From NCBI GenBank assembly GCA_000091205.1, contig AP006496.2: a DNA stretch of 64,000 nt; one strand, written 5' to 3'. Origin of the DNA: Cyanidioschyzon merolae. Lineage: Eukaryota. The first letter of the stretch is position 1; each line of letters starts with the position of its first letter. Shown here piece after piece: positions 536 to 36,720 of this stretch. The notes below the pieces were generated by a model, which ran no database searches, was not told the DNA's origin, and worked only from the letters and a program-made list of their open reading frames with translations. The position numbers and the translations under genes were made by a program.

Positions 536-587
536 CTGAATGGAGTGCGCCCCTGCGGATGCAAACGTGTACCTGTGCATGCATCGA

Positions 588-790: not shown

Positions 791-1044
791 TCGGCGCCCT
801 GCGTGCTCGCCCGAAATCGTCACTGCGCTGCCTTGGCGCGCACGCGGGGTCCGGAAGCGGCAGTGCGCAGCGCACCGTTTTGGCTCCTCTTCGGGAGCGC
901 GCTCTCGGCTACCAGTGCCGTTCTCTACCAAAAGTCATAGGGAAATAGGTGTGGTTGTTGATTTTGAAGAGGTTACCGAAGCAGTTGCAGTGAAAGAGCA
1001 CGTTGATTGGATATAACTTGTAGCAACGGGAAGCGCGCCTATGC

Positions 1045-11910: not shown

Positions 11911-12490
11911 TCTTCTCGCATGCAATAGATCGTGTTGCTAGATAGTTGCTCCTTATCAAAGAATGCGGGAAACGGATCCAAGTACTGAATAAAGTGTACT
12001 AGTCAAGGTGGACTTGCCAGTAACAGATCCTCTCTAACCCCAACGTGCTGACCTCTTTCTTCTCGCATGCAATAGATCGTGTTGCTAGATAGTTGCTCCT
12101 TATCAAAGAATGCTGGAAACGGATCCAAGTACTGAATAAAGTGTACTAGTCAAGGTGGACTTGCCAGTAACAGATCCTCTCTAACCCCAACGTGCTGACC
12201 TCTTTCTTCTCGCATGCAATAGATCGTGTTGCTAGATAGTTGCTCCTTATCAAAGAATGCTGGAAACGGATCCAAGTACTGAATAAAGTGTACTAGTCAA
12301 GGTGGACTTGCCAGTAACAGATCCTCTCTAACCCCAACGTGCTGACCTCTTTCTTCTCGCATGCAATAGATCGTGTTGCTAGATAGTTGCTCCTTATCAA
12401 AGAATGCTGGAAACGGATCCAAGTACTGAATAAAGTGTACTAGTCAAGGTGGACTTGCCAGTAACAGATCCTCTCTAACCCCAACGTCGA
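11911..12490. repeat. Intergenic satellite with a 146-147-bp unit, 4 tandem copies.
   Basis: The unit tctcgcatgcaatagatcgtgttgctagatagttgctccttatcaaagaatgctggaaacggatccaagtactgaataaagtgtactagtcaaggtggacttgccagtaacagatcctctctaaccccaacgtgctgacctctttctt repeats at 11914, 12061, 12207 and 12353. Confidence 0.9.
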
Positions 12491-12745: not shown

Positions 12746-14731
12746 ATGCTCACCGGCTGGACCGTGCACTCGCCGACGGTTCTGAGCTGGGTTCTCGTCG
12801 GGTTTCACGCCAAACATGGACACCAAATTGAATGTGCAGAGTTAGCGGATGAGCTGTCGGTGAACTGGCAAGTGAACCAGCCAGAAGAACGCTCCGGAGC
12901 TTCAGCGCAGAACCTCAGCAATGACTGGCTTCGCGAGGTGGCCGTGCGAGCGCTTCCCGACGGTGCCCATGAACGCGACCACGACATCGTGTACTTCACC
13001 GTTCGACACTGCGTCACTGTCGACACGTTGTACGGTGTAGCTTGCTACCGACAGCGTCAGGTGGACTGCAGTCGCATCGCTAGCGCTGAGGAGGCTGCTG
13101 CAACAGCCCGAGGTCTCGTCCAAAAGTCTGTGGTATTGTTGAGTCGCTGGCCTCTGTATGCGCTTCTAGCGAGTCGACTAGAGCCGGTGGTTGCCAGTTA
13201 CTTTGCGAAACATAACTTTGGGCAGGTAGACTGCTTCCGGACCTTGGTTACGACGCTGAATGAAGAGGTAGCGGCTGCATTGGGCGACCCTGAAGTGCAA
13301 CGACTGCCGGTATCGACACCAGTGCCAGTGCAGCGACTACCAGCGTGCCTGGATCGCTACGTCTTTGGCGACACGTGTCTCCAACAGCTGGTGACGCGGC
13401 TTCGACGGGACTTGTTGCGCCTGATCAAACTCGTTTTATTAGAAAGGCGCGTTTTGGTCGTTGGGTCACCAGTCGAGCTCGTGGCTAAGGCAGTGCTTTC
13501 GCTGGTCAGCGTTTTCCCGGCCGAGTGTCTGGAGCCGCCACCGAACTCGGGGCGGGACGCTGCACTTGACCTAGCGACGTGCTGTACACTAGCACAACTT
13601 CCTTTTGGTCTGTTCGACCTGTATGGAAGCACGGGCGTGATTCGTGTTGAACCGTATGTGCCGCTGGCGTCTCTACAACCAACGTTAGCCGAACGAGACG
13701 CTGATACTGCTGCTGCCACAACAACGCGCTGGATCGTTGGGGTATCTACACCTGTCGGTCGACTATTTGCGGATGCTTGTCGGTCTGCTGGGGTCTTTGA
13801 ACGCTCACCGGTGCGATCCCTATTCGTAACAGGGCGCTCGGCGTCTGCGCAGACACCACACTCGGTACCTGAGTCGATGTCTCCGGAGCGCAGCGACACC
13901 AGGCCAGCCAAGGCTTCGTGGCGGCCGATGAACGCCTTCCCGCAGCCGCCAGATGCACTGGTGCACCTTGAGCGAGGTCGGGTCTATTTCACGCCGGAAC
14001 TCGCGTCACTTTTAGAGCTAACTCGTTCAGAGAAACGTTTCATAGATGAGCTGGTCCATGCGACTGCACGCGGAGCACTGAACGAGTCAGCAGTGCGAGC
14101 ACGCCTTCAATGGTACATCGTGAAGCTTGCCTTGATAGCTGCAGTGGCTGGTGATGATGCCCCCATGCCCGCTGAACAGCAACCTGCTCTGATCGATGAA
14201 CTAGGTCTCCCGTTTTTCCAGCACTGGAATCGTCATACAACGCATTTTCGACGCTGGCACGCTTCATTGCATAGGGCACATGCGACGCTGCGACGCAACG
14301 CACTGGGACATGTGTTGCGGTACGCGTCGAGCATGCCGACTGCCGTCGATGAACAACAGCAACAACAACATTCGATGCGCGCCTCCTTCGAGGAGCTGGA
14401 CGCGGGGCTGGGGCTGCATTCGCTTCGCCAGGCTTGGATGCGCTGGTGGCGCTCCGCTACCTCCACGGACGATACTCGACGGCAGTCGTCGTGGAGAGTG
14501 CATCACGGAACTGCGGTCACTCGAGTCGAGAGCCGTGGAGCCAGCGATGCTTGGCAGCGCTCCTGGGCACTGCCGTCCATCTCCGCGGGTACCATTGCCG
14601 ACGAAGCATGGGCGTCATCTGGCGAAGCGTCAACGATTCCGCAGGCGAAAGCGCACCTGATGACGCCAGCGGTTGCCGCTGCCTTCACGTCGACGGATAT
14701 CACGTTATTGCGGGATCGCTTGTCGCCCTGA
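12746..14731 (+). CDS. AVL9/DENN-domain protein, with uDENN and cDENN regions.
   Basis: VLVGFHAKHGHQIE (uDENN-like) and KLVLLERRVLVVGSPVELVAKAVLSLVSVFP (cDENN-like). First in-frame ATG is at 12746; the ORF track's M at 12698 is GTG. Confidence 0.6.
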   Translation: MLTGWTVHSPTVLSWVLVGFHAKHGHQIECAELADELSVNWQVNQPEERSGASAQNLSNDWLREVAVRALPDGAHERDHDIVYFTVRHCVTVDTLYGVACYRQRQVDCSRIASAEEAAATARGLVQKSVVLLSRWPLYALLASRLEPVVASYFAKHNFGQVDCFRTLVTTLNEEVAAALGDPEVQRLPVSTPVPVQRLPACLDRYVFGDTCLQQLVTRLRRDLLRLIKLVLLERRVLVVGSPVELVAKAVLSLVSVFPAECLEPPPNSGRDAALDLATCCTLAQLPFGLFDLYGSTGVIRVEPYVPLASLQPTLAERDADTAAATTTRWIVGVSTPVGRLFADACRSAGVFERSPVRSLFVTGRSASAQTPHSVPESMSPERSDTRPAKASWRPMNAFPQPPDALVHLERGRVYFTPELASLLELTRSEKRFIDELVHATARGALNESAVRARLQWYIVKLALIAAVAGDDAPMPAEQQPALIDELGLPFFQHWNRHTTHFRRWHASLHRAHATLRRNALGHVLRYASSMPTAVDEQQQQQHSMRASFEELDAGLGLHSLRQAWMRWWRSATSTDDTRRQSSWRVHHGTAVTRVESRGASDAWQRSWALPSISAGTIADEAWASSGEASTIPQAKAHLMTPAVAAAFTSTDITLLRDRLSP

Positions 14732-15953
14732 TAGCAATGACGACACTCATCGCGCGGGAGAGGCGGTGGAGGTGGCGCTCTATGAGCAGCACAGATATTT
14801 CTCGATGTATCATTGTAAACGCGGGACTTGTAGATTCGTGTCTTTGGCACCAACGGACACCTCTTCTGTACAGAGCGGTGCATGCTGGAATGCTTGTACC
14901 AGTTTATCCTTATTGTTTTCGTTTGTTTCTCGTGCAAGGAGTTCAATAAAAGGAATGTGTCTCGTGGACTGGACAGAGATCGCGGAAAGCTTTGATGTTG
15001 TGGTCGCTATTGGCTTGCGATAATGAGCGACCTGACTATCCCAGGGCTCGGTATTGTCGAGCGTTGGGCATGCGCGCTCTCAGGGCCGTATCGAGAAGCG
15101 CGGAATACCTGGCACACTTCATGCCGTGAGCACACGAGCGATCCAGTGGCACACGCGGACGATCTTTGGTAGGTGTACATGGTGCTGCACTGGGGTTGCA
15201 AAGCGTTTCTTCTGCATGAAGGCAAGAGGCGTGCATTCGCTAACTTGTTCAATGCGTTGGAAAATAAAAAATGACTCCCAATTCGCGTCATGTGGTGGTA
15301 GCCTCCAGCGATGGATGTGCGGTTGCGCGCAAGAGCTGCCTGGTCTCTGCTGCTTCGAGGAGCGCGTAGAACGAGTGCAGGAATCGATGCTGCAAGATTC
15401 ACGTCAACTCATTCAGGACGACGTACAGGCATCACGAGCTCTGGTCAAAATTGAAATACGTAGAGAAGAAGAGAGCGCAACAGAGACGGATGCATGAAAT
15501 GGTGTACGGTATGCTGAGCGTACGTCAGCATGGGTTCCAAGTGAATCCAACGGGCTTGCACAGGTGTGTGTGTGTGTATGTGTTTGTGTGATTCCATCAG
15601 CTACGAAGCACCCATGTACGTTCTATATGGGGAATCGCATGCCCCGACGAACACCGGAAATGTATTGTGCTTCGAGAGCGCCCGTCGGTTTTGTGTGGAG
15701 CGAACTGGCGAGTGAATCGTTTAGTACTCAGTTTGGGCCCTGCGCTGAAACGCTGCAGAGTTTCGATGCAAAGTATCAGTTGCCAGAATCGAGGCGTTGA
15801 AATCTCGCTTGGATCGAGGCACTCTTCTGGTGCGGTCAACAGCCAAGCAAGGCTGGGGCACCATACAGATACACCGGCAACGGAGTTCCTGGAATTTTCG
15901 TGAACAAAAATGGTGTCCCGTGATCCCATGCTCCAGAGTCCAGATCGTTGGGG

Positions 15954-16436
15954 TTAGGATACAGGCTCCACGCTGGCCATGATGCCCTCTGCTAGCAGAC
16001 GTCCACAGCAGCACTCGGCGAGCCGCTCACTCGGCATGAGCACCTCGGCTCGTCCGCACCGCTCCAGTATTCGAGCGGTCGCCACGGCCGTGCCAAAGCC
16101 CATTTGCGGGACATGGCTTACGAGAGCGCGCACAACGTGCTCCGTGGAGTGGCCCTGCTCGAGCGTCTGTGCTCGGAAGAGCACAACTCGATAGACCGGC
16201 GCGCGTATCGTCCAGTTTTCGGGGCCTGTGGTCGACGGCTGGGCGCTGCTGGCTCCAGCGGCGCTGGGCGCAGCGGCGACAGCAGCGTTCGCCGGAGCGC
16301 TGCGACTGGACTCTCCCTTAGTATCACGGAAGAAAGACGGCAAGCGTTGGACGCGTTCCAACTCGCGAGCAGAGGCGCGCGGAGCGCCTCGTCGTCGGGC
16401 AGCAAGCCACGCTGCCGTGGTCTCCAACAGCACCAT
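15954..16436 (-). CDS. clpS: ClpS-like ATP-dependent Clp protease adaptor with an N-terminal presequence. The ORF stays open upstream to 16742.
   Basis: C-terminal core YRVVLFRAQTLEQGHSTEHVVRALVSHVPQMGFGTAVATARILERCGRAEVL...RLLAEGIMASVEP matches the ClpS fold consensus. ATG at 16436. Confidence 0.55.
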   Translation of the reverse strand: MVLLETTAAWLAARRRGAPRASARELERVQRLPSFFRDTKGESSRSAPANAAVAAAPSAAGASSAQPSTTGPENWTIRAPVYRVVLFRAQTLEQGHSTEHVVRALVSHVPQMGFGTAVATARILERCGRAEVLMPSERLAECCCGRLLAEGIMASVEPVS

Positions 16437-16851
16437 CAGCTGCACGCGAACAACTGCAGGCGCAGGTCGAGCCGGTTGTGCGTTTCCGTGAGGACTCCCA
16501 TTGGGCGTTGCTGCGTGCTGCTCAGGAGGTTGCCCAAAACGACGCTCCTCATCAACACCGTCGTCACTGCTGCCGCTCGCCGCTGTACTAGCGTAACACG
16601 AACAGCGCCGACGCTTCGGAGCAACCACGCCCGCGGGCGCTCCGCTGACGCTCCAACGGTGCCCAGGTTGTAGGCGTTGCAAGGTACACACGACGAAAAC
16701 CATACCGGTGTTTACGCCAGAGTCGAGCGTCACGATGTGCAACTTTCAGCAACACTTATGCGCAGTAGATAGTACGTACGGGCGCCGCAGCCAAACGCCT
16801 TTCGAAAGTCGAACGACGTCGGGCGTGTACAGTAGCGGCGACCGGCGGCCT

Positions 16852-19189
16852 AGACGTAACGCTTCCAGCTGGTGTGCAGACGCCTCCCAGCGTTTCTCGG
16901 CGGGCCACGTACTATTTCTTCTAATTTCGTCTCATATACTTCTACTTTTCGAGATTGTCCAACAAAATTCCCTCTTGTCTACTCTGGAGGTCTGTTCTCC
17001 AGCACTGCCCATCTCCGGATATTGATAGCGGCGTTAAAGTCACGATTCACAAAATCCATACGTCTCCTGCAATCTCTGGTTGTACTTTCTGATGCAAGTA
17101 GTCCACGAACTTTCGCTCTCCTTTCAATTTGCTCTTCCGTCAGCGGTTCGTGCTTTGCTATTTCCGAACGGCTCGTTGGCACTTTTCCATCTCCACTGTC
17201 TGAAGTGTACAACCCATTTCATGGTGTGTATAGGACGTTCGGAACTCATGTACAGGTATCGTGAAGAAACGCCTTGCGCACTCTTTGTATGTTCTTGCCG
17301 TTGGAACTGGCGCAGTCCCTTTTTTCGACGCCGAGCACCCTGCTCTGTACGCTACTACGAGCCTCTGACTTTCATCCTCCTTCAGGGCGCTCAACTGATT
17401 GAAAAAATTCGCGAACGCCCGCTGCTTCCCACAATACAAGTTCATTCACAAACGAGCCCACCGGGGCTTGGTATACTCCTCCCACAGCGCCTCCCAATGA
17501 GCAGCGCGAACTTTCATGAATTTCCGAAAAGCTTCAAAGTCCGCTCCTCGGCTAGTCACCTCGCTCAAAGCTTCCATGTGATCCTTCACTCCTGAATTCC
17601 ATTTCTCGATTTTCTTCCTTGCATTCATTATACCGGATTCTCGATAGTATCTTGGTCTCGAGAACCTCAAAAGACGCATGTCTCTCTAACGAAAGTTACC
17701 ACCAGTACTATCTTCCGCACGCTTCGGTGCTGCGATGGTGATGATATTCGTATTCCCGGGGTCCGCGCCAACGACAAAGTCGTTATCTTGTACTTTCTGT
17801 GCCGCAGGATCCGCCTTCTTGTTTTCTTCATGCTTCGTCGCGCCAACGACAAAGTCGTTATCTTCCACTTTCTGGGTCGCAGGATCCTCCTCTTTCTTTT
17901 CTTCATGCTCCGCCGCGTCAACGACAATGTGGTTATCCTCCACCTCCTGCGTCGCAGGATCCTCCTCTTTCTTTTCTTCATGCTCCGCCGCGTCAACGAC
18001 AAAGTCGTTATCCTCCGTCTCCTGCGTAGCAGGGTGCGCCTCCTTCTCATCTTCATGCCTCGCCGCATCAACGACATGGTCGTTATCTTCCACCTCCTGC
18101 ATGAGAGGATCCTCCTCTTTGTTTTCTTCATCCTTCGTCATGGGCGCAGTCGAGGGCGGAATTGGACGATCTTTCTTCAACCGCCGATAGTGTATACACA
18201 TGGCTACTCCATCGGTTTCGATCAACCCAGTAAATACCTTTTGTTTGGTCTCTTTGAGACGTTTGAAATTGAAGATATTCTTCCAGTACGTCTCCCGGTT
18301 ATCACCGGAGAACTCCTTGTTGCTAACATTGAACTCCGGACAGATCTCCTTCATGATGCCATGAAGGATCCTGGAGTCGATACTCACAAAATGTGACTTG
18401 ATGTTGCACAACGGAACCACGTTGAACCGCTTACCCATTAGGAAAGCCTTCTGTCTCTCCCACTCTTCATTTTTCCTCACTCAGCTTCATCTCCGCCTTG
18501 CGTTCGAGTTCTCGATTCAGGAATACGAAATAGAGCAGGATGAGTTGATAGCATCTTTTTTCATCTTTTTTGAACTCTGATATTTTTTCTGTTGGATTCG
18601 CCAGCCCCATGACTGCACGGTGCTCTTGTATAACCGCACGGATTACAGAAGCCTCATTCGTGCTCTCGTTTGGCGCCTTCTTGTCGACAAATTCGACCTC
18701 ATCTTCATACTTTCGATCGTTCGTGATGCCATTGATAATCGCCCATATTCCTTTGCGAGACAGGCCCGGGTAGAGTGGAAACACGGTGCGTATTATGAAA
18801 CGTTCGAGGTTCATTGTCAAATGGTTCTTCAGGTTCGTGATGTGCTTCATCGCCCCGTAGCCGTAAATACCCCGGTCACCCTTGTATCGAGTACCGTTGA
18901 AGCTGTAAAAGGGATGTTTTTCGTGGGGGCCATGCACTAGCACATTTTCCCTCCGCGTTTTCTCTCCACCAAGCATCAGGTGTCGAATAAAGGTGATGTC
19001 GAAAAACTCGTCTGGAATCTCGACCGTTTCGATGTGCGTCACGTCTTTGTACATCTCCCTCGCCAAATGCATCAGCCCTGACGACGCCTTGACAATACTC
19101 TTGGAGTACGAGTCGACGCGTTTTTCGATAGCGTCTCGCAACTTTTCCCTGTACGGATCCTTGATATGGCCAAGAAGAAAGGCTCTCAT
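16852..19189 (-). pseudogene. Fanzor1-like (TnpB-like) RuvC nuclease gene, disrupted. Ruv[18 protein letters not shown], RuvC-II region IPVHEFRTSYTHHE, zinc finger, RuvC-III VNRDFNAAINI.
   Basis: Main ATG at 19189. One frameshift near KAEMKLSEEK/EWERQ. Nonsense TAG where B has CAG (GGNFR*RDMRLL). Frameshifts at PRWARL/MNLYCG and after MEKCQR. Nonsense TAG where B has TTG (RPPE*TRGNF). The coding tail ...RGNFVGQSRKVEVYETKLEEIVRGPPRNAGRRLHTSWKRYV* is conserved with B at the amino-acid level. Confidence 0.75.
17745..18125 (-). repeat. In-frame 75-bp coding tandem repeat, about 5 copies, encoding roughly [25 protein letters not shown], inside the Fanzor-like ORF just upstream of RuvC-I.
   Basis: Period 75 nt (for example 17877 and 17952). 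Copy B has about 2 units (27.16-27.26 kb). Confidence 0.85.
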
Positions 19190-19399
19190 CACCTTCTCGT
19201 CGTACAGTCGTCTTTCTTGCCGCCTTCGACGTAGGACCTCTCCCCTTCGGTTCTTTTTCTTCTCCTTTTCTTCTGGGCTCGGCACTGTTTTTCGTTTTTT
19301 CTGGCAGCCAGCGATACTGGGCCTCCAGGATCGTCGACTTGCTTTTTCATAGCTTTCCTTTTTCAGTTTTTTTAAATGAACCCGCTGTGAATGCTTCGG

Positions 19400-19406
19400 T
19401 TATATA
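19400..19406 (-). promoter_or_regulatory. Conserved TATATAA box about 50 bp upstream of the uORF ATG (19350) of element copy A.
   Basis: cgcagTATATAAccgaagc in A aligns to cgcggTATATAAcagaagc in B (25857-25863) within the conserved 5' end. Confidence 0.45.
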
Positions 19407-20799
19407 CTGCGAAAAAACACTTGGCCAGACTTGTTTGAGGGTTGAAACACCAATGAACTGAAAACTATATTTTTGTTCGACTCCGACGCAAATACAACTT
19501 TTACAGCTGAACAACACGCTCCTGGTCAGCATCGCGGTTCCTTTCAACGGCGGCATGTGCATCGCGTCAGTTGACTGCCTGATCTCCGAGATGCGTTCAT
19601 TAAGCGCAATGCGTCCATCGCACGAGACGCCACTCCAGTCGATGAAGGACACGTGTCCGACACCCCGCATTGGCACATGCGTGTTCGCATCGCATTGCAG
19701 CCAAACTAAAGTATCGTAGATAGGAAACTCACGTAGAACGATCTCTTGCTATAGACGCTGTCGCTGGTGCCGAAGCTACTGCCCATCGCAGTACCGCCTG
19801 GACATACATGGAAATGTTGGGACCTAACGCGATACCTCGTGATGCTTCTATCAAAAGCGTAGCGTTCTCTGCGGCTTACCGTTGTGTGGATGACGTATGC
19901 ATCACTCTTCTCACTAGGAATTTCGTTAGTTTTATTCATCGTAACCAAACTAGGTACGGTGGGATTCCTGAACACGGACATACGTTTAATGCCGATGCTT
20001 GTCACGCATGCTACACTGACGCTGGAATGAGGAACTGACCTGAATTGTGCTTCTATCCTGCGTCATAGGCTGGTACTGATGACCGTTCAAGTCATTTCCA
20101 TGCTGCTGTCGTTGTCTAACTTATGGTGCCTGCTTCGTCCTCCGGATCCGGTGATCTTGGCAGAGGCATAGCACACTCGACCGGCCCCCTGCTATCGGTT
20201 TCAGCTTCTCCTTGTTCACCTCTGGCCTGGGAGGTTCCCCCAGAAAGTTGGACCGCGTCAGCTCCGCCGGTCGCGCGTTCATCACCATTCATCATCTGAT
20301 ATTGATGGCGTTTTGTCTGAAACGCTCGTGATAGAGCTGAGGTCAAGAAGCGATCAATCTTGACCGACGCTATCAAACGAGCGGTACCAGAAGCTGAGGG
20401 CTGCAGCCGGCACCAGGTGCTCTGATGCCTACATGCTGGCCGTGAATAGTGCGTGACGAAGTCGCACAGCATGCCACGGTTTCCTAGTACGTAAACCAAG
20501 CACGTATTCGAAACGTTCGGGTTCAGTGTGATGACGAGTCGCCGCTACGGCATTCTGGGAAAATCATCCGAGTGCGCTATGGTTGTTCGAACATCGAGCA
20601 TCATCACGTGTATGGGTGCGTTTCACTGCACGAGTTGCAACGATCATCGAATCCACCATCATCCAAAAGTGACGAAAATTTACAAGCGTACCGGGCTCGC
20701 ACCTCCAGGTCAGGACGTGCCCACCAGCACGCAAACAAATTTCGTGCCCTGCTGTGCTTTCACCAAAAACGAAAGGAAACATGCGTTTCCTCGACCAGG

Positions 20800-21079
20800 G
20801 ATAGAGGGTTCCGAATTCCTTCAGATACTGCCGATGTTTCGTCCGAACCCAGACCAGCATCTGCAGTGTGCCCACGAGCATACACAGGATGCCTGCGATT
20901 GTTCGCATCATCGAGATCAATCCTACCCACGCCAGTACCTCAAATATGCAGTTCGGATACGACACGAACTCGAAAAGCAAGCCGAATGGGATCCGCCACC
21001 AGCAGCGGCCGCGAAACCCGATTGCAAACCGCTCCCGCAAGCCATTTGGGCAAACGAGTGGTGCAGCGCGCATATTCAT
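20800..21079 (-). CDS. Exon encoding the C-terminal domain of a 3-oxo-5-alpha-steroid 4-dehydrogenase-family protein (SRD5A/TECR/polyprenol reductase-like). Gene structure is incomplete.
   Basis: GLLFEFVSYPNCIFEVLAWVGLISMM...LVWVRTKHRQYLKEFGTLYPWSRKRMFPFVF matches PF02544. The ORF has no stop after the conserved end, so either an intron or a C-terminal extension follows. Confidence 0.45.
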
Positions 21080-21664
21080 ATAATGCAGCAGCAGTAGCAG
21101 CAGCAGAGTGCATCTAGGGGTGTGCGTGGATGGTGAGCATGCGTTGCGCAGCTACGATGTGCTTTCGTTGAATGCGGCAGATAGCTGCATGGATCGTTGC
21201 GTGCGGTGCGCTGCTGTGATGCGCTTTACGGGCGGCGTTCGGGAAACCTGCTTTTGCCTCACGGGAGCGCGCGTCAGTGTCGAGTAGCCCGTCGGCAGGG
21301 CCGGACAGCATCTCTTGCAAACGAGTCCGCTGGCAGCGAATCGAGCAGGCGATACGACGTTGCGCTCGTCATCGGATATCGGCACTGCAAGGCACACGGA
21401 TACCTGTAGAGCTCGTAGTTGATCGGTCTGCAACACGGTTCGGCATGCGCCTCGCCAGGGAACTGCAGAGCAAGTGTGTGCGTGCACAAACGATGCGCGC
21501 TCTGGGCTGGAAAACGACGCTGCGTCGCAGCTTGTGTCCGCAAAATATACGTACTCCTCTGGTTCGGTATCGGAAACCGCAGTAGCTACTCGCGCAGGTG
21601 CTGCTGACACAGGTATCGATTGCGCGGCGCCTGAGCGCAATATCCAACCGCCGCGACTCTGCGC

Positions 21665-21994
21665 TCACATGTGCGCTTCGATGCCACGGAGGATTTCTTC
21701 GGCCTTGGCGCCGTTAATCGTGAGCACGCGGTCACCATTCTTGTAGAAATGAAAGCTCGGTACGCTGCGAATACCAGCGGCCTTCATCATCATAGATGTT
21801 TCCTTGGACTTATCCCCCACCACTTTTAAGAACACCACGTCGGTGTACTCCTCACTCCATGATTCCATCTTCGGTTCCATGAGTTTGCACGGCCCGCACC
21901 AGGTGGTCCCGTAATCGACAACAATGAGCTTGTTCCCCGCTTCCGACAGGATGCGTTCCATTTCCTCTTGTGAATCAACTTCCCGAACCGCCAT
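21665..21994 (-). CDS. trx: Thioredoxin (h-type fold). The ORF extends upstream to 22240, with a His7 tract.
   Basis: WCGPC active site. Full thioredoxin fold alignment: LIVVDYGTTWCGPCKLMEPKMESWSEEY...VVFLKVVGDKS. ATG at 21994. Confidence 0.8.
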   Translation of the reverse strand: MAVREVDSQEEMERILSEAGNKLIVVDYGTTWCGPCKLMEPKMESWSEEYTDVVFLKVVGDKSKETSMMMKAAGIRSVPSFHFYKNGDRVLTINGAKAEEILRGIEAHM

Positions 21995-22428
21995 CCTAGG
22001 CCGAAGCGAACCCAGAGGCCTGCGGCGGCTGTAGCTGTAGCTGCAGCGGTGGTGGTGGTGGTGGTGGTGTCCAGACCCAACGCCCTGCTGCACCGTTCCG
22101 AGGGCGTGTCGGCGCCATAGCGGCGCTTTACTGCCACTAGCAAGCAAGGCCCGTGTACACACCGCGCCACTACCGAGGTCAGCGCGTTTCCCGACCGATC
22201 CCGCAACAGGTACTGATACAAAGCAACTGATTCCTACCATTTCCGTCTCTCAGGGTCCTGCTTGTGTGGAGTACACGTTGCCCAGCAAAGCACCAGCGTA
22301 GAGCAGTCGCCACAACGATCTCCGCGCCTGTGCGCTGCGGCTGGCGCACTGCCGCATCTCATCGAGGCGAGATCGCGGCGCCTGGAAGTGGACATCAGCG
22401 GCGGCAGCGGCGGCAGCGGCAGCAGGTG

Positions 22429-22630
22429 TCACGAGCACGGGGTGCGGACATATACCAACGAACATACGGTGTGTCGATGGGTGCTGCTTTGGGTGTCACG
22501 CGCACGGGGTTCCGAAGTATATCAGTGAACATACGATGTGTCGATGGGCGCTGCTTTGGGTGTCACGCGCACGGGGTGCGGACGTATATCAGTGAACATA
22601 CGGTGTGTCGATGGGCGCTGCATTGGATGA
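22429..22630. repeat. Tandem repeat with a 67-bp unit, 3 copies.
   Basis: gtcacg(c)gcacggggtgcggacgtatatcagtgaacatacggtgtgtcgatgggcgctgctttgggt at 22429, 22496 and 22563. Confidence 0.85.
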
Positions 22631-24406
22631 GCGTCGATTGCGATCGTTTGCCAGATGAAGCATTTCTAGAAGCGGATGTACACCTCCTAACGCATGATAT
22701 TTCCTGTATGGATGCGTCCGTTGCTTGACAAGGCCAGGGTGATCTCGACTTCGGATCGGATGCTGTTGATGATACGCCAATGATCGAGAGATCATTCGGG
22801 TATCGAAAGCATGATCGGTCTCGTGTACCAGATAGATTGCAATCGCGAATACTGGAACCGAGGAGCACCCCAGTACGCGAGCGCTCGCAACACGTGTCCC
22901 CACTGAGCGAGCGCCTCACTGGGCGACATCGGCCTCGTGGTGAAGCGTCGCAGCGTGCCCCTATTCATAAGCAACGACGATGCTGCAGTCCTGGCGCTGC
23001 GATTGTGCCGTTTGTGGTCTGCTAGTATTATTTTGACACGGTTCGACACCTGATACCGAGGGCTCGCGCTGCCGCGGGATGCCCAGCTCCGGTTTTCGAT
23101 CCCCGCCTTCGAGCGCTGCCTTTCGGATTCAACGACCGGCTCAGCAGCGAGACTAGTGACGAATCGTCTGAAAGCGCTGCTAGGACGCTGCGCACTGCCT
23201 CTGTGTACACGCGTAGGCGGTGGGTATCTGGATGCGACGCGCTCGGCTTTGCTCAGCGGAGCGCTTTTGTGCAACCATTGCGCATGTTGCTGCTCGGTTG
23301 CGACTTGGTCTGGATGGCAGTCTATTCGAGTCTGAAAGTCACGCATTAGGTCATGAGGGTCATTTTCACTTTAGTGACATGCAAAACGGAAAGCAGGTAC
23401 TCAATGTTCCAATGGGGTTTGCTTGCGTGCATCCATAGACGGCCCGCATCAAGCTTCCGCTCGATGCTGTTTCTGGCGCTGAGCATCGCGGGCACGCGGC
23501 ACTCGGCACTGTGAGGTGAGCAGCGACCTGCGCGAGCGCAACACATTACGGCCGCAGGAAGAGGTGTCGATCAAAGGGGTCGAACGGATTCCACTGCCCA
23601 TGGGTCACTCGGTGAAGCCGTTCGCATGTACCCGTTCCCAGTCATCATCAGCGTGTTGGGTATCGATCAGCGTTTGCGTTTCGCGCTTGAAGCAACTGCC
23701 TCTCTTCATATACCACGGATGCATCCGTATGCTCGGCTTGTATGGACCACGAACTGGATCCCATGTCAAGCAGGCAAACGGACGCGCTCTTTCGTGACCA
23801 ATACACAGCATCTGCTGAGCGTCGCTCGATCGCTTTCTTCCTTCCAGTCCGCGAATGCTCCGATGCGTGCTCGTTCGACGCGAAGTCGCACCAGAGAAAC
23901 TGCATCGAACAGAGTCCGTCATGCATCGTCGCAGGAAACACAGCATTATCATAAACACGCACGCTGCCTCGGGTCTTTTGAGCCTTGCGCACATCAAAAG
24001 TCAACAGGCCCGCTGCCGGGTGCATCGCGACGATCGTCAGCGATCAGTGCGTACCGTCCGAGATCGTGATTCCCTAACCAGCATGAGCGCGTCGTTCCTT
24101 GTACATCATCCACACTATAGTGCTGCGTCATCCACGCTCAGTGCTCACACGACGCGCCCAGCTCTAACAGATGCGCCGCCTGACTATTGCGCAGACAACC
24201 GGAGGCACACATCCGCGAAACCAGACATCGCCGGTATTTCCCCAGGCAAGTCATTTGCTGAACGCGCGGTCATTCAAGGGAGCCTATCGGGAAATGCCTA
24301 GAAATGACGAGCCCCTATGGCAGGTGCATGAGCCTTCACTGCCACCGTTCTATGCCTTCTGTCCTGAGACGCGCCGGCGCTGTCGCGGCCGTCGGTAAGC
24401 CAGCGC

Positions 24407-25065
24407 TCAAGCACCAGCGCTGTAACAATGCTGGCTGGGATCCGAGCCCAAGATGACGTAGGTGTAAATTTCGTCGTTCAGCATTTGTGCGGTATACGAT
24501 GCGATAAACTTGTACCGACCAGAGGTCAGCGCTGAACGGAATACCCGTTCCATCTCTGGAACCACCAGCATTGCAGCTTCAAAGGCCTCCCGTCCAAAGA
24601 GGCCCTCGCCGCCGTATGCATACGGACTCGACCAGTTGAAATAGTGCGCTGGCAACTTTGTGGCATGCGCAGCGCCCATATAGTCGGTGCTGGTCCAGCC
24701 GCCCACGGCGAGCGCTGACTCGACAGCTGCCCGTCCGAGCGCACTGCAGTTGCCAGCGGCCACGTCTGCTATCGGACACTCCACCATGTTATCCACGACG
24801 TTCGCAGCACCAATGATCAGTCCCTTGTTCAGACACAGGTCATGATCAAGGTCTGCAAGCGCATTCATGATGGTAAAGTCGTATTGCGACACGTTCAGGG
24901 CCATAGCGTCGGTCTCGTTGATGTAGATGCCACCGAGCGCCCTGCTCGGCACCCGCAGGATACTCTCTTCGAGCGTCTCGAGGTTCAGCGGCGTAACCAC
25001 TGTCGCAGCACAACGAGACAAACATCCCGCAAGCCCCCACAGGCTAAGAAAAGCGAAAAGAAGCC
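24407..25065 (-). CDS. Secreted Cys-containing protein with a signal peptide and N-glycosylation sites; unknown family. Paralog of the gene at 30544..31191.
   Basis: Signal peptide MRAWLLFAFLSLWGLAGC. Shared C-terminal motif LGSDPSQHCY and overall about 40% identity with the paralog. ATG at 25065. Confidence 0.55.
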
Positions 25066-25856
25066 ACGCTCGCATATTAATCAGAACAGAGCCACGTTCC
25101 AGGAAAAACAGCAATGTCTCTATCGTGGGTGGTGCTGCATTGGGGATCAAGGCGCACCGCGTGTGCGTGCGTCTGTGCGCGGAGCGCCCTGCGGCGAACA
25201 GGCCCCGGTGCAGGCCCTGCGAGACGCCGCGGTGGCACCACCGGCGCACGCCTCGGGAGCCGGCACACTCGATCCGTGGCGATCGAACAGGCCCAGCGGC
25301 AGCGCCAAAATGGGCGTTCGGGACGTCGGCGGCGCCACCAGCATCAGCGATCGGCGCCAGATTAGGAAGCGATGCGTGCCGGCGCGCGCTGTTTCCGACG
25401 TTCCAGGCGTCGACGCGTCGATGTCGGTGGTGGTGGCTGCGGGCGCCTGCATCTCCACTTAGGTGAGGGCGGTACTGAGATGGGCAGGAGCGTCGGCACC
25501 AGCGACATAGCATAGAGCAGGAGTGCATTCTACGTGAATTTCCAATCTAGGACACCTGATTTCAGCTGCAGTGCGATGCGAACACGCATGTGCCAATGCG
25601 GCTTCGGACACGTGTGCTTCATCGATCGGAGCAGCGTCTCGTGCAGTGCACGCATCGCGCTCGGTGAGCGCACCCCGGAGATCAGGCAGTCCATTGACGC
25701 GACGCGTATGTCGCCAATGAGGGGAAACGTGATCTTGATCAGTAACGTGTAGCCGCAATGTAAAATTGTAATTTCATTGAGTTCGTATCCAGGTATAGTT
25801 TTTATTTCAATTGTGCTTCACCCTTAAAACAAGCGTAGTCAAGTGTTTTCTCGCGG

Positions 25857-25863
25857 TATATAA
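25857..25863 (+). promoter_or_regulatory. Conserved TATATAA box 56 bp upstream of the uORF ATG (25919) of element copy B.
   Basis: Aligned with the copy A TATA box within the conserved 5' end. Confidence 0.45.
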
Positions 25864-26079
25864 CAGAAGCGTTCAAAGAACGTTCTTTTTCAAAAAAAAA
25901 TCTAAAAAAAGGAAAGTTATGAAAAAGCAAGTCGACGATCCTGGAGGCCCAGTGTCGCTGGCTGCCAGAAAAAACGAAAAACAGTGCCGTGCCCAGAAGA
26001 AAAGGAGAAGAAAAAGAACCGAAGGGGAGAGGTCCTACGTCGAAGGCGGCAAGAAAGACGACTGTACGACGAGAAGGTG

Positions 26080-28177
26080 ATGAGAGCCTTTCTTCTTGGC
26101 CATATCAGGGATCCGTACAGGGAAAAGTTGCGAGACGCTATCGAAAAACGCGTCGACTCGTACCCCAAGAGTATTGTCAAGGCGTCGTCAGGGCTCATGC
26201 ATTTGGCGAGGGAGATGTATCGCGACGTGACGCACATCGAAACGGTCGAGCTTCCGGACGAGTTTTTCGACATCACCTTTATTCGACACCTGATGCTTGG
26301 CACAGGGGAAGCGCGGAGGGAAAATGTGCTAGTGCATGGCCCCCACGAAAAACATCCCTTTTACAGCTTCCAGGGTAATCGATACAGCGATGACGGAAAT
26401 ATTTACACATGCGGGGTAATGAAGTACATCACGAACCCGAAGAACCATTTTACAGTGAACCTCGAACGTTTCATGATACGCGCCGTGTTTCCACTCTACC
26501 CGGGCCTGTCTCGCAAAGAAATACGGGCGATTATCAATGGCATCACGAAGGATCGTAAGCATAAAGATGAGGTCGAATTCGTCGACAAGAAGCCGTCACG
26601 CAGGAGCACGAATGAGGATTCTGTAATCCGTGCGGTTGTACAAGAGCACCGTGCGGTACTGGGGCTGGCGAGTCCAACGGAAAAGATATCAGATTTAAAA
26701 AAAGATAAGGAAAGATACTATCGCCTCGTCCCGCGATATTTTGTGTTTCTGGACCGAGAGCTCGAACGCAAGGCAGAGGTGAAGCTGAATGGGAAAAATG
26801 ACGAGTGGGAGAGACGGAGGGCTTTCCTAATGGGAAGCGCTTCAACCTCGTTCCAATGTGCAACATCAAGTCACATTTTGTGAGTATCGACTCCAGGATC
26901 CTTCATGGCATCATCAGGGAGATCTGTCCGGAGTTCGATATAAGGGAGACAGAGTTCACCGGTGAAAACCGGGAGACATACTGGAAGAATATCTTCAATT
27001 TCAAACGTCTCAAAGTGACCAAACAAAAGGTATTTACTGGGTTGATCGAAACCGATGGAGTAGCCATGTGTATACACTATCAGCGTTTGAAGAAAGATCG
27101 TCCTGGTCCGCCCTCGGCGAACCACGAAGATGAGACGGAGGCGGTTCCTGCCACGTAGAAAGTGCAGGAAAACGACTTTGTCGTTGGTGCGGCGAAGCAT
27201 AAAGATGAGGAGGAGGAGGATCCTGCGACGCATGAGGTGGAGGATAACGACTTTGTGGTAGGCGTGAACCCCGGGAACACGAATATCATAACCATCGCTG
27301 TATCCAAGCGTGCAGAAGATGGTACTGACGGCAACTTGCGTCAGAAGACATGCGACTTTTGAGGTGCTCGAGAGCAAAATGCTATCGAGAATCCGGTATC
27401 ATGAATGCAAGGAAGAAAATTGAGACATGGAATGCAGTAATGAAGGATCACCCGGAAGCTTTGAGCGAGGTGACGAGCCGCGGCGGGGACTTTAACGCTT
27501 TTCTGAAAATCATGAAACTTCGCGTTGCTCGTTGGGATGCGCTGTGGGAGGAGTATACAAAGCCTCGGTGGGCTCGTCAACGTATGAAACTATACTGTGG
27601 TAAGCGGCGCGCGTTCGCGAATTTTTTCAATCAGTTGAGCGCCCTCAAAGAGGATGAAAGTCAGAGGCTCGTAGTAGCATACGGAGCAGGGCGCTGGAAG
27701 ATCCAAAAAAGGACTACGCCAGCTCCATCGACAAGAACGTATAAGGAGTGTGCACGGCGTTTTGCTACAATACCTGTTGATGAGTTCCGAACATCGTATA
27801 CACACCATGAACGGTGATGTACGCTCCAGAGAGTCGAGATGAAAAAGCGCCAGAGGAGCCCTGAGGATATAAAAAAGTACGGAGCGCAAACGGAAGAGCA
27901 AATGGAAAGGAAAGCGAAAGTTCGTGGACTGATCGCATTGGCGAGTACAATCAATGGCAAGAAACGTATCGAATTCGTGAACCGAGACTTTAACGCCGCC
28001 ATCAATAGAAGGAGATGTGCGGCGATGGAGACGAGACCTGCGGAGTTGACAAGAGAGAATTTTATGGGGCAACCTCTCAAGGTGGAATTATACGATACGA
28101 AGCTGAAGTCAGTAGTAGGTGGCCGGTCGAGAAAGACGGGGAGGCGTCTGCATTTCAGTTGGAGACGTCTCGTCTAG
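26080..28177 (+). pseudogene. Fanzor1-like (TnpB-like) RuvC nuclease gene, disrupted. RuvC-I has mutated to GVNPG (D to N). RuvC-II IPVDEFRTS, RuvC-III VNRDFNAAINRRRC.
   Basis: Main ATG at 26080, overlapping the stop of a 53-codon basic uORF (25919..26080, TGATG). A 1-bp indel at AFLMG/KRFNLV. Nonsense TAG at VPAT*KVQ where A has CAG. A 1-bp deletion at RQKT/MRLL. TGA at HHER*C where A has ATGGGT. Elsewhere continuous where A is broken. Confidence 0.75.
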
Positions 28178-28724
28178 GACGAGTTCGCCGCCACTGCTGT
28201 ACACCGCTGGCGGCAGCGTTGTTCTTTTGGAAAGCGTTTGTTGTTCGTGGTGCTCTTGCCGTTTGTCTCATGCGCGTTTGAAGGTGCGAATTTAGCAAGT
28301 CGAGTTGGGCTCGTCACGGGTGTGTGTGCACCGCAGGCGCGGGCAACGTGGTACACGACGCTCGTACCTCCACGGATGCTTCCAAGTGAACCACTGGTGC
28401 CGGACTGGTGTTCCTCTCAGAGATAGTGGTTTAACCGTTTCCGTTTCCCCGCGGTTGCTGAGCGCAGAAGGGACAGCTTTGCTGTACGAATGGACGAATA
28501 TCGCTTCGAGGTGCACTGTCCAGCATACCGGGCATAGAGGCTGATAGATCGGGCGCTTTGGTATCGGTGCGTTGCGAAACCGCGCAAGGTTCAAGAAGCA
28601 TGCAGTCCGCTTTACTTTCTGGATTTTTGGCACCAGTGCCCATATACGGTTGCTCGAACCGAATACAGTGCTTTCGCTAGGCGCTAGCGGCAACGGAGCT
28701 CAATGATCATGCGCTGCTCCAGTG

Positions 28725-29156: not shown

Positions 29157-30543
29157 CAGCGCTCGGTACGTGTCCTCGACTGGTACAGATGGCTCTTTTC
29201 GATGTTTTCATCAGGCGCCGCGCCCGGTGCTGTGCCCAGTGATCACGGCTCGCGTCAGACGATTCCCTCGGCGAGTACTCTGTCCACCGCACATGCAAGC
29301 GAAGGCTGTTCCACTCGATACGGGATTAGCGGCACCCGATATCGTCCGTAATCAAACAAGTGCGGGAAGGGTAATCCAGTTTAGAGAAAAGTTGAGAACA
29401 TTCGATCCGTCTCCGTTCCCTTCGCGCACAGCAATGACGCACTCTCTAAAGGGAGCGGTCGCTTCGATGACGCAAGTCGCACTCTGAATCCAAGACGATT
29501 TTCCATGCGAACACACGGGACGAGAGCCCGCTGGAGCAGTTCCCGCAAAATGTTTCGTACAGGTGTGAGATTTCTTTTCGTAGACGACCGCTAAAAGAGG
29601 CGGATTTGTGTTTTTCGAACGGAATCGATAAATTGACATGACAAGTTCAGTGGTCTTTTGGCAAGAGTTTTTGATCAAGAGGTCATGGTGCGACGTCGAG
29701 GATGCTTCTGCGTCATTCCAGCGGGGCGAGTTGCCGCGCGCACGAGTTTCCATGCAGGATATTGATCGAAAACTTGAAGAATACATGGTTTGAGCGTGGG
29801 GCACGTAGGGATCGGAAAAGGACGGAGGAACACAGGTATGCATTGGATAACGATATCGGTTATTTCACGAACCCTCGCTCGAGGGCGTCGCAAATCATCG
29901 CGATTCAACGGACGTCACGAATTCCAGCTCTGTACTGTATCGAAAGAGCCTCCCAAAGTAAATATGGCCGAGAATCACTGACCTACATATCCATCCGTAC
30001 GCCCGTATTGTTGCGCTTAGAATACCGCGGTTGTAGACCCAAGAACGCGTTCGGAATAGAGTCGGAAAGCAGGAGCAGAGTGAGCAGTTCAGTGCTCCAG
30101 TTGAGAGCCTGGCACGCGTATGAGCTCGACGCGCGCATCCATCGCCTGCCGCCGTGCACGGCAATTTGCCAGCGGCGGAAATCATCGCGCCATCGACAGG
30201 AGCCACTGTGCGCGCTGAACGACGTCGCCTTGCTGTGGGCGCGCCTCGACCCGAACGCGTCGGTGTTTGCTTCACAAAATCGCGTGCAGCAAAGGCATCG
30301 AAAGACGGGGATTCGGAGCGGCTCATGAGCGCGCGCACCATGGAATGCGTGACACGTGTCCCACAGCGGCGCGGTGACGTGCACGTGCCGAATTTGGCAG
30401 CGCTGTGTGTTGTATTGGGATGTGGATGCGGTGCGAAACGCTCGGTGTGTATCGACACGAACGCATTTGCATGTTTTTTTGCGACTGTAGCAGATACTTC
30501 AAGGCTAACCTGTGTCTTCGACTACAAGTCGTTTATTATTCCG

Positions 30544-31191
30544 ATGGTTTCGAACAGGTCTGCGTTTAGGCTAGCCGTGCTCGCTCTTGCGCTGATACTC
30601 TTTACTATGATCTGGGACGCTGCTGTCTATCGGGGAACCTCAGCGCTGCCGCTGAGCACCCAGGTACGCGCTGCAGAGAACAGAACGCACCACCTCCCCG
30701 ATGCCGTTGCAGCGGCGCTCAACTACACGCAGTTCGAGTACACGCTCGCAAACTCACTGTATAAAATCAACCCGCATATATGCCTGAACTATGCCTTGTC
30801 AGTTGCGGCAGCGAACCTGGCGGATCTCCTCACCTACTGCACGCCAGATCAGGTTGGGAATAACAGCTGTAGCGCTCTGACGCCCGGTGCTATCGCTCGG
30901 ACGCTGCTCGCTGCGGGATGGACCAGCACGAATATCCAGCTCGTGGACCTCGCAGCCAAGGTGCCAGCAAGGTATTTCAATTGGTCGACCAGTGACGGGC
31001 TCTCGGGTCTGCAAGCGTACCACGTCGGTCTTCAAGCTGCACCATACGTTGTGAACCAACTGCGGCCTTACCTACATAGTGGACAACTCAACCTGGTTGG
31101 GGTAGGTGCAGTGGCTCTCCGCACAGACTACGTGTACGCGATGGTTGCCCTGGGCGGGGATCCATCGCAACACTGCTACGAAGCGAGCTAG
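30544..31191 (+). CDS. Secreted or membrane-anchored Cys-containing protein; paralog of 24407..25065.
   Basis: N-terminal hydrophobic segment AFRLAVLALALILFTMIW. C-terminus LGGDPSQHCYEAS. ATG at 30544. Confidence 0.5.
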   Translation: MVSNRSAFRLAVLALALILFTMIWDAAVYRGTSALPLSTQVRAAENRTHHLPDAVAAALNYTQFEYTLANSLYKINPHICLNYALSVAAANLADLLTYCTPDQVGNNSCSALTPGAIARTLLAAGWTSTNIQLVDLAAKVPARYFNWSTSDGLSGLQAYHVGLQAAPYVVNQLRPYLHSGQLNLVGVGAVALRTDYVYAMVALGGDPSQHCYEAS

Positions 31192-34894: not shown

Positions 34895-35827
34895 CTAGTT
34901 TGCCTGCGTTCCCCGATGACTCGCCAATCTGGAGGGCCAAAGTGGCCCACCAGCCGCCCATTCTGGATTGTAACCTTTCCGCAGATACTCGGCATGCATG
35001 CGTTCCGCGAGATAGCGCGCGCGTTGTTCGTAGAGGCGCGCATCTGCCCAGTAGGTAGCCGGGTGCAGAAGGCGCGAATCGAGCCCGGGAATCGCACGCG
35101 GCACCCGCAATCCGAAAATCGGATCTGGCGCGGACACCTGACTCGTAGGGATCGCATCCGTGGCGATGGCACGCACGATTGCCCGCGAAACCTCCAGGTC
35201 CATGCGTGCGGCACCGTCGGCAGCGCCGCCGCCCGCCCAACCGGTATTCACCAGGTACACCTGGGTGCCGTGACGCTCCAGTTTCTCATTGAGCAATTGT
35301 GCATAGACTTGACCATTCAACGGCATGAACGCTGCTCCAAAACAGGTGCTGAAAGTGGCGGTCGGCCTCAGCACACCACGCTCCGTTCCAGCAACCTTGG
35401 CAGTGTACGCTAGAATAAAATGATAAGCAGCCTGGAGTGGTGTCAACACAGACACCGGGGGCAAGACGCCAAAAGCATCGCATACGAGGAAAATGAATGC
35501 CTTGGGCGGTGGACCCTGGCGTGATGCCTCCCACTGCGGTATATTGTGGATTGGGCAGGTCGCTCGGGTGTTCTCGGTTTTGGAAGCGTCATCAAACTGG
35601 ACAACGCCGTGTCCATCCACGACGACGTTTTCGAGAATCGTGGACGGCTTTCGAATTGCACTGTAAAGAATCGGTTCCTTCTCCGGCGACAGGCGGATCA
35701 CTTTGACGTATATACCACCCTCCATGTTGCGGATCGCCGTTTCGTCCCAGGAGTGCTCGTCGTCCCCGATGAGTTTCCGCTCGGGGTCCGCGGATAACGT
35801 TGATTTTCCGGTTCCCGACAAGCCGCT
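34895..35827 (-). CDS. pckA: Phosphoenolpyruvate carboxykinase (ATP), exon 2.
   Basis: GLSGTGKSTLSADPERKLIGDDEH kinase-1a and downstream PEPCK-ATP motifs: ENTRATCPI, DAFGVLPPVS, TAKVAGTE, NTGWAGG. Confidence 0.85.
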   Translation of the reverse strand, partial: SGLSGTGKSTLSADPERKLIGDDEHSWDETAIRNMEGGIYVKVIRLSPEKEPILYSAIRKPSTILENVVVDGHGVVQFDDASKTENTRATCPIHNIPQWEASRQGPPPKAFIFLVCDAFGVLPPVSVLTPLQAAYHFILAYTAKVAGTERGVLRPTATFSTCFGAAFMPLNGQVYAQLLNEKLERHGTQVYLVNTGWAGGGAADGAARMDLEVSRAIVRAIATDAIPTSQVSAPDPIFGLRVPRAIPGLDSRLLHPATYWADARLYEQRARYLAERMHAEYLRKGYNPEWAAGGPLWPSRLASHRGTQAN

Positions 35828-35901
35828 AGATTTCACGCAATGGTTAGTGTTCCGTTTTGCTGAATCGGCCTGCTGCGTGCTTCTGCGATGTTCCAAACTT
35901 A

Positions 35902-36720
35902 CGCAAAACAAATAGTGTCCGGATTCGTGTCCGATAGGGAGCGCGTCGCTGCGCAGTGTAACGGCAAAATGCCTTTCAGCGGCAGCATTCCGTTCATGAT
36001 GGTGAACACCGATTTTTTCATTTCACCCGCGTAGCTCGTGCCAGCGATAAGCGCCAAGCGACGCTCGAAACCGAGCACAATAAATATATCCGAGTTCAGT
36101 CCCATTGCCCGATAATGTCGATTGCGCAAGCCGCTAGCGTAAACCACGGTAAAGTCCGGCTCGCCGAAGCTCGCTGCCTCCGCCGGACTCGATAGCGGTA
36201 TAAATATGTTGCTGGCGAAGGCATGATGCCAGGCGAGTTCGGTCACGACGCGGAGCTTGAGACGGTTCGGTCCGCTGGATACGAGCCCGTCGAAGACGAA
36301 CAGCTCAGGCAAGGCTGATAAATAGTTGGCAACCTGTTTCTGAAGTTCGTCGACGATTGTTCGCTCTATTGGCTGGTTGACCTCGCCCCAGTCGATGCGT
36401 TCCGCTAGGGGCGAGCCCTCGCGACGTTCGATGTAGCGGTCACGCGGCGACCGGCCCGTGAACTCTCCGGTATCCACGCAAAGTGCACCCGGTGGGTCTC
36501 TCGCTTCAACGCCCTCACGTCGTTGTAACGCCAGTGCTTTCGCCTCGGAGAACGGCAGGTTCCGGTGAATGGCACCAGGCGCACGCTGGAAGCCTAGCTG
36601 CCTCACCAAGAACTGCTCTACGGTTTCCGGAGACGTTCCGCCGCTGCTTAGGCGGCGTTGCCAAGTGCGAAGCAACCGTGGACCGCTTCTCAAGCTGGTT
36701 CGAAGGCGAGGAAACCACAT
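35902..36720 (-). CDS. pckA: Phosphoenolpyruvate carboxykinase (ATP), exon 1, with an Arg-rich N-terminal presequence. The intron is 35828..35901.
   Basis: GEFTGRSPRDRY, TSYAGEMKK and LPLHCAA motifs. The donor gc|GTAAGT at 35901 and acceptor tctAG| at 35828 restore the frame, giving ...ICFA-GLSGTGKST. Confidence 0.8.

Follow-up and report, generated by a model that had tools for sequence, protein, structure and literature searches.

Introduction

The closest described counterpart of the elements reported here is CMe-1A, the single Fanzor1 family of Cyanidioschyzon merolae (Bao and Jurka 2013, Mobile DNA 4:12; PMC3627910). CMe-1A is represented by ~150 copies, each ~80% identical to the consensus and ~3 kb in length (PMC3627910). 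The family is without terminal inverted repeats and without a recognisable target-site duplication, some copies are still intact, and the 5' 635 bp are common to the short element TE-N2_CMe (PMC3627910). In characterised systems of the Fanzor and TnpB type, the region of the transposon end gives rise to the omega RNA, which can overlap the stop codon and whose guide reaches into the flank (Saito et al. 2023, PMC10432273; Jiang et al. 2023, PMC10530073). Here we describe two Fanzor1 elements in inverted orientation on chromosome 14 of C. merolae 10D (852,727 bp). The window denotes the whole 64-kb stretch of this chromosome that was analysed, and coordinates refer to it unless a contig is named. 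Copy A (16792–20175, minus strand) and copy B (25442–28240, plus strand) form a head-to-head inverted pair separated by 5.27 kb of unique DNA (20176–25441).

Our analysis establishes the identity of the element and its family membership, the pseudogene status and independent origin of the two copies, a conversion tract between them, and the fixation of a single orientation in the sampled strains. Taken as a whole, the arms are very probably two old, broken copies of the known element CMe-1A that inserted independently around ordinary host genes. The family was already described in 2013, and the arrangement is an ordinary one for a known element.

Structure of the inverted pair

An initial annotation of this DNA had placed two inverted elements with facing 5' ends at 16791–28245. 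The repeat search and a global alignment confirmed that the head-to-head pair is real. A and B are 83.8% identical across 2787 aligned positions, which is far above chance, and the decayed open reading frame (ORF) lies on the minus strand in A and on the plus strand in B, so that the 5' ends face each other. The similarity was recovered as one collinear set of inverted-repeat blocks pairing ~16846–19816 with ~25450–28181 (910 nt at 90%, 507 nt at 84%, 285 nt at 91%, and several of 150–230 nt at 75–81%). The repeat search over the whole window returned no other repeat pair of ≥100 nt except two tandem arrays. Identity along the pair is uneven, reaching 95–100% around B 25904–26300 and dropping to 75–80% toward both ends.

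The outer limits given in the initial annotation (16791 and 28245) lie within a few bases of the 3' termini at 16792 and ~28240 and stand, whereas its inner limits (19.69 and 25.57 kb) were corrected. A–B homology extends to 19816 and 25450, and comparison with other copies placed the 5' limit of A at 20175 and showed that B is 5'-truncated at 25442–25450. The contents listed for the interval, namely an SRD5A-like fragment, a thioredoxin gene, a 67-bp minisatellite and a secreted-protein gene, were all found by Pfam, exact protein matching and repeat search.

Identity of the element

The reading frames of both arms carry TnpB-type RuvC nuclease motifs, including NRDFNAAINI. Translation of B after repair of two frameshifts gave a protein of 731 amino acids with 40 homologues, all from hot-spring metagenomes and up to 68–77% identical. 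An apparently intact homologue of 752 amino acids (P0001), 68% identical to the repaired B protein, lies between two unrelated host genes. Exhaustive searching with a hidden Markov model retrieved 2178 relatives.

A profile of 49 sequences with P0001 as its first sequence matched the solved Fanzor1 structures PpFz1 (9cf0, E 1.1e-19), SpuFz1 (8gkh, 1.8e-14) and GtFz1 (9cer, 2.2e-10), and the next match in the PDB followed at E 0.27. Diverse relatives were needed in the profile to reach these structures; a shallow first profile gave SpuFz1 only at E 6.7. In the 49-sequence alignment, D484, E656, R724 and N727 are invariant and D725 is present in at least 90% of the sequences, which accounts for the RuvC Asp/Glu/Asp triad. 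The Pfam family Cas12f1-like_TNB (PF07282) was matched by 7 of the 49 relatives (best E 5.6e-5); P0001, P0040 and the window copies gave no match to it, and the paired CxxC motifs are missing there too. Pfam searches with the separate ORF pieces, the repaired protein and P0001 gave no match, nor did NCBIfam.

The same element is dispersed widely in metagenome contigs, which held 371 confirmed stretches with differing flanks. Eighty further copies, at loci with different flanks, were fetched from these contigs to define the ends of the element. Terminal inverted repeats within a single copy were not reported by the repeat search.

Inactivation of copies A and B

Both copies are pseudogenes. A is a full-length CMe-1A-type element of 3384 bp, and its decayed Fanzor1 frame (16850–19285, minus strand) matched P0001 in a tblastn search at 71–77% on the amino-acid level. 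The frame keeps the RuvC codons for GADPG, HEFRT and NRDFNAAINI and is interrupted by a frameshift near 18478, a TAG at 17686, a TGA near 17447 and a frameshift near 17177. The three lesions toward the 3' end recur in the environmental contig L092. The frameshift at 18478 is absent from another such contig, L002, and is specific to the strain of the window. B is a CMe-1A-type element that lacks ~350 bp at the 5' end relative to A. Its decayed frame (25984–28177, plus strand) contains a frameshift at 26835, a TAG at 27156, a frameshift at 27346 and a TGA at 27818, all four of which are present in L002, and the RuvC-I Asp is replaced by Asn (GVNPG). No disabling lesion is common to A and B, and seven of the eight recur in environmental contigs. 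Because these seven are found in environmental strains, the insertions are old.

The coding region also contains a 75-bp tandem repeat, detected by the repeat search in five copies inside the A ORF (17763–18137, minus strand) and in 1.9 copies in B (27115–27256, plus strand). It encodes an acidic unit of 25 amino acids located between the N-terminal half and RuvC-I. P0001 has ~4 units (residues ~380–480), and the number of units varies from 2 to 5. The environmental contigs break at the 75-bp repeat of A. The acidic insertion was not seen in the solved Fanzor1 sequences aligned by the profile search.

Independent insertion of the two copies

A and B are independent insertions, because outside the conversion tract described below they resemble unrelated copies at least as closely as one another. 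Their identity outside the tract is 81.6%, which ranks 44 of 58 among the matches of A to other copies (maximum 84.9%). A also reaches farther at its 5' end than B and has more of the 75-bp repeats, and homology between the two ends at the element termini on both sides.

The copies lie only 5.3 kb apart in mirror orientation, and both possess a 5' segment (B 25442–25651) that is missing from most family members. These two features would suit a single inverted (palindromic) segmental duplication, in which one insertion was copied together with its flank and the halves then diverged. The extra ~200 bp at the 5' ends was considered as duplicated flank and rejected: the unrelated copies in L018, L030, L044 and L087 carry the same sequence, so that it belongs to the element and not to the flank. 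Homology that stops at the element termini, a rank outside the tract no better than that of random family members, and the differences in 5' truncation, repeat number and every disabling lesion render the duplication highly improbable.

With ~150 copies in a genome of ~16.5 Mb, chance alone would place roughly 8 pairs of copies within 6 kb. Among the 81 loci fetched, seven contained a further copy no more than 3.5 kb away, and one of these, in L013, is again a head-to-head pair. The head-to-head layout is not unusual and is expected by chance at this copy number. L013 carries an apparently intact Fanzor1 copy (99% to P0001), and its pair lies at 18–1641 (minus) and 2979–5677 (plus), 1.3 kb apart, so that such pairs are a recurring arrangement of the family.

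In the sequence of events that we propose, A inserted in the minus sense next to a ClpS-like gene, 88 bp upstream from its likely ATG (16703). B entered the upstream region of CMN280C in the plus sense and was shortened by ~350 bp at the 5' end. The DNA between the copies (5.3 kb) is ordinary chromosomal sequence with the thioredoxin f-like gene, CMN280C, the minisatellite and an old gene fragment.

Conversion tract between the arms

Between 25906 and 26220 (A 19363–19049), A and B differ by 7 mismatches in 315 bp. The two copies are 97.8% identical in this tract, where their identity to any other copy is at most 91.1% and the family median is 87%; the probability of such identity is ~1e-6 even against the closest other copy. 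The longest exact A–B block, 117 bp, spans 25991–26107. Where environmental contigs enter the tract, on one side or the other, they match the window at ~99%, and the tract is therefore not an assembly artefact. It is the footprint of gene conversion, a past non-reciprocal exchange, and the only evidence that the arms have interacted. In this respect the initial annotation was borne out, since it had regarded the arms as two mobile-element copies that bracket host genes and are homologous enough to interact.

The conversion may have arisen from the repair of a double-strand break templated by the neighbouring copy. The pair probably has no function as a unit, and its one detectable effect is the ectopic conversion that homogenised ~315 bp.

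Orientation of the interval

Ten thioredoxin-bearing environmental contigs, of 14 on record, were aligned to the window, and each outer junction of the pair is covered by a single contig. The left flank is joined to the 3' half of A in L092 (98.9% identity), in the arrangement of the window. The junction of the 5' end of A with the interior was recovered in L002, L003, L004, L010 and L011, and that of the interior with the 5' end of B in L002–L009, all in the window arrangement; L005 reaches the 5' extension of A. From B into the right flank, L002 is collinear with the window over 14.3 kb at 97.4% identity. An ORF of the right flank, looked up in order to obtain further contigs across this junction, had no entry on record. 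Neither an inversion nor an empty site nor a mobilised copy of the interval was found among the environmental contigs examined. Because every contig that covers the interval enters an arm and none has an empty site, the insertions appear to be fixed in the sampled strains.

The same contigs bear on the reliability of the assembly. Repeats are typical sites of misassembly, and L002 itself is probably chimeric at the 75-bp repeat, so that an inverted repeat produced by sequencing or assembly had to be considered. Contigs from at least 10 samples, however, reproduce both arm–interior junctions at 97–99.7% identity with the arm-specific lesions included, and each junction of an arm with its outer flank is reproduced by a single contig. 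The idea of an artefact is almost certainly wrong.

The initial annotation had further proposed that the repeats are substrates for inversion or hairpin formation and could mobilise the genes between them. The pair would then be a functional unit, either a composite transposon or a recombination-driven invertible segment, that moves the thioredoxin gene and CMN280C. The conversion tract fits this proposal in that it shows arms that paired and exchanged sequence. A second point concerns a block of 4.3 kb running from 21106 down to 16817, which consists of the Steroid_dh fragment described below, a small relic and copy A. It recurs at L044 1688–5803 with 85–89% identity and other flanks (an Mpv17-like gene), so that adjacent DNA can be co-duplicated. 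This recurrence points to movement of the gene fragment with the element, or to duplication of the two as one piece.

Against inversion, every junction recovered has the window orientation over all four junction types, including the singly covered outer ones. The thioredoxin gene has the same context and orientation in all ten aligned contigs. Outside the tract the arms are 81.6% identical, with a longest perfect match of 117 bp, and are thus a poor substrate for crossover. Given 18% divergence and a spacer of 5.3 kb, both crossover and cruciform extrusion should be rare, and a spacer of this length makes hairpin formation implausible on general grounds. An invertible segment would further be expected to occur in both orientations and to have a dedicated recombinase or long, near-identical arms; one orientation was seen, the arms are not near-identical, and a domain scan of the interval genes found no recombinase or transposase domain.

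Mobilisation fares no better. Both copies are dead, B is without the RuvC-I Asp, the Fanzor protein is a nuclease and not a transposase, and the element has no transposase ORF. For a composite transposon, the flanking copies carry stops and frameshifts, and all ten of the aligned thioredoxin contigs are collinear with the window. A functional unit is therefore very unlikely. It is also unlikely, if somewhat less so, that the arms are still recombinationally active, the 315-bp tract being the trace of this, with a low-frequency inversion of the thioredoxin gene and CMN280C in natural populations, and, as a separate matter, that CMe-1A elements co-mobilise adjacent host DNA. Two inactive copies, inserted independently around ordinary genes, account for the locus best.

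Termini of the element and a candidate omega RNA

The 3' terminus is sharp, lying at 16792 in A, a position common to ~48 copies, and at ~28240 in B. About 60 nt past the stop codon are conserved up to this terminus. The conserved end reads ...GTCTAG (stop) GGCG..CGCCACTACTGTACAC, followed by a hairpin of 10–14 bp and then TTTG. In A, the non-coding end (16792–16849, minus strand) retains the subterminal hairpin (~16794–16820), and in B (28178–28240, plus strand) the hairpin is weakened. Among 31 non-redundant copies, the hairpin in most stops 2 nt short of the terminus. Its sequence comes in two variants, each with its own pairing register. The consensus that RNAalifold derived from the 3' 180 nt was weak and missed the terminal hairpin; the hairpins reported here come from single-sequence folds. 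Rfam and tRNA scans of the window were empty. The hairpin-bearing 3' end is a candidate omega-RNA scaffold or transposon right end. A Helitron was considered in view of the 3' hairpin and rejected, as the terminus ...GGCGTTTG is not CTRR and the sole ORF is Fanzor1.

The 5' side is modular and exists in three or more variants, and most copies start at the point equivalent to B 25652. An extra upstream module is present in A, in B and in the unrelated copies of L018, L030, L044 and L087. The 5' limit of A at 20175 is common to L030, L018 and L044. The 5' module of A (20175 to ~19613) is common to a minority of copies only and may correspond to the 635-bp module of CMe-1A, with which it is consistent. 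A 5' terminus, a target-site duplication or a target motif could not be defined from the fetched copies.

Beyond the 3' terminus, the flanks of ~30 non-redundant copies (28241–28255 in the window, for example) are poor in A and rich in G/T over the first ~10 nt, with TGGTGYG, TTGTTG and TTTCCAGGGG as recurring patterns. The bias may stem from a preference for certain targets, or from poor conservation of the true terminus. On the 5' side, a different repeat of ~965 bp stands beside Fanzor copies in either orientation (L001 4703–5667, and L047, L090, L046, L031, L033 and L065).

Genes of the interval and neighbouring features

Six ORFs of the window match proteins in the collection exactly. Five are annotated C. 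merolae 10D proteins with CMN tags, including BAM81356, CMN280C and NHE8; the sixth is the first exon of PEPCK and matched metagenome gene calls only. The thioredoxin f-like host gene lies at 21665–22240 on the minus strand (exact match to BAM81356.1, supported by Pfam). Upstream of it, the repeat search located three copies of a 67-bp intergenic repeat (22425–22626).

CMN280C (BAM81357.1) occupies 24407–25528 on the minus strand by exact protein match. Its annotated product of 373 amino acids starts inside copy B, while metagenome gene calls of 222 amino acids start at 25075 with a signal-like sequence (MRAWLLFAFLSLWG...), at what is an internal Met of the annotated protein. The annotated N-terminal 151 residues are probably spurious and the start wrong. 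To the right of B, an ORF at 30154–31191 (plus strand) resembles CMN280C (24407–25075, minus strand) by eye, with the shared pattern ...AANxxD...C...NCSAL...GWTST...SQHCY.... If the two are paralogues, B sits in the upstream region common to a divergent gene pair.

The interval also contains the C-terminal fragment of a Steroid_dh or enoyl-CoA-reductase-like protein (20564–21079, minus strand; Pfam E 5e-17). Because its protein cluster has no NCBI member, the fragment is probably unannotated in 10D. The search for its parent gave only a partial enoyl-CoA reductase that is 66% identical. Directly upstream of A, a relic at 20176–20310 (minus strand) is similar to the 3' portion of a further element copy (69% to B 27997–28131), and tandem layouts of this kind also occur in L030 and L087. 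A strongly diverged relic of the Fanzor1 C-terminal (RuvC) region was detected by tblastn at 15125–15708 (plus strand). A further diverged RuvC-region relic lies at 75–263 (plus strand), and these two show 29–47% amino-acid identity to family members. The first 28 kb of the window thus hold five Fanzor-derived remnants.

Two features lie farther away. PEPCK (BAM81360, 582 amino acids; 34898–36720, minus strand) is found as two blocks ~74 nt apart (35828–35901), with two overlapping ORFs in the ORF scan, and the gap is consistent with a short intron, a rare feature in this genome. Just downstream of an ORF of 3504 amino acids, 11911–12487 contains a perfect 147-bp tandem repeat (at least three overlapping 283-nt copies, 100%).

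Discussion

As a discovery the locus is small: the family was described in 2013, and an inverted dead pair is expected by chance at this copy number. It matters modestly in three practical respects. The annotated CMN280C start falls within a relic of a transposon and is likely to be an error. Nearby Fanzor copies do exchange sequence ectopically in this compact genome, as the conversion tract shows. The sharp hairpin-bearing 3' terminus, together with intact environmental copies of 752 amino acids, is a starting point for work on a Fanzor1 of a thermoacidophilic alga and its guide RNA. If co-mobilisation of host DNA, which is unlikely, were true, the recurrence at L044 would mean that these Fanzor1 elements transduce gene fragments, and do so in a genome noted for its near absence of repeats.

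Several points weigh against our interpretation. The elements were assigned to CMe-1A by description: they agree with it in species, size, copy number and divergence, have no terminal inverted repeats and are homologous to Fanzor1. The AlphaFold2 model of P0001, built from an 18-sequence alignment, reached a predicted local distance difference test score of 34 and is unusable for confirmation at the fold level. The omega-RNA scaffold or right end is proposed from sequence. Among the environmental contigs, only L002 extends across B into the right flank, and no single contig covers A, the interval and B with both outer flanks; a rare inversion allele is compatible with this sampling. In addition, L002 leaves the window sequence inside the 75-bp repeat of A and continues, at its positions 14258–20576, into genes for PRPP synthetase, glutaredoxin and RRN3, which belong to a chromosome of 866,983 bp in 10D. 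Since the break falls within tandemly repeated sequence and the junction in L092 is normal, the switch is probably an assembly chimera; a real element-mediated rearrangement or translocation is the less likely explanation.

Comparison with known systems

Inverted pairs of Ty or insertion sequence (IS) elements that cause inversions resemble the A–B pair in that homologous elements lie a few kb apart in inverted orientation and show evidence of gene conversion. The A–B pair differs from them in that no inversion was observed, and its ~18% divergence should strongly suppress crossover.

Bacterial IS200/IS605 elements with TnpB share with the C. merolae element a TnpB-type nuclease gene that reads toward the right end and a subterminal hairpin at that end, and neither has terminal inverted repeats. 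Unlike them, the C. merolae element has no TnpA (Y1 transposase), resides in a eukaryotic host and is larger.

Among characterised Fanzor1 proteins, SpuFz1 (8GKH), PpFz1 (9CF0) and GtFz1 (9CER) (Saito et al. 2023, PMC10432273) are alike in profile similarity across WED and RuvC and in the Asp/Glu/Asp residues. The conserved non-coding transposon end that overlaps or adjoins the stop codon, which is the omega-RNA site of the characterised systems, also has its counterpart here. In contrast to those proteins, the C. merolae proteins are without clear CxxC zinc-ribbon pairs between RuvC-II and RuvC-III and contain the acidic tandem repeat of 25 amino acids. The window copies differ further in being pseudogenes.

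The closest agreement is with CMe-1A itself. Compared by published description, the arms and CMe-1A share the species, a length of ~3 kb, many copies of ~80% identity, and the lack of terminal inverted repeats and of a recognisable target-site duplication. In both, the single ORF encodes a Fanzor1 protein, some copies are intact (P0001 here), and a 5' module is present in a subset of copies; no essential difference emerged. To the known picture of CMe-1A this locus adds a sharp 3' terminus with a subterminal hairpin, a coding repeat of 75 bp in variable number, and the conversion tract between A and B.

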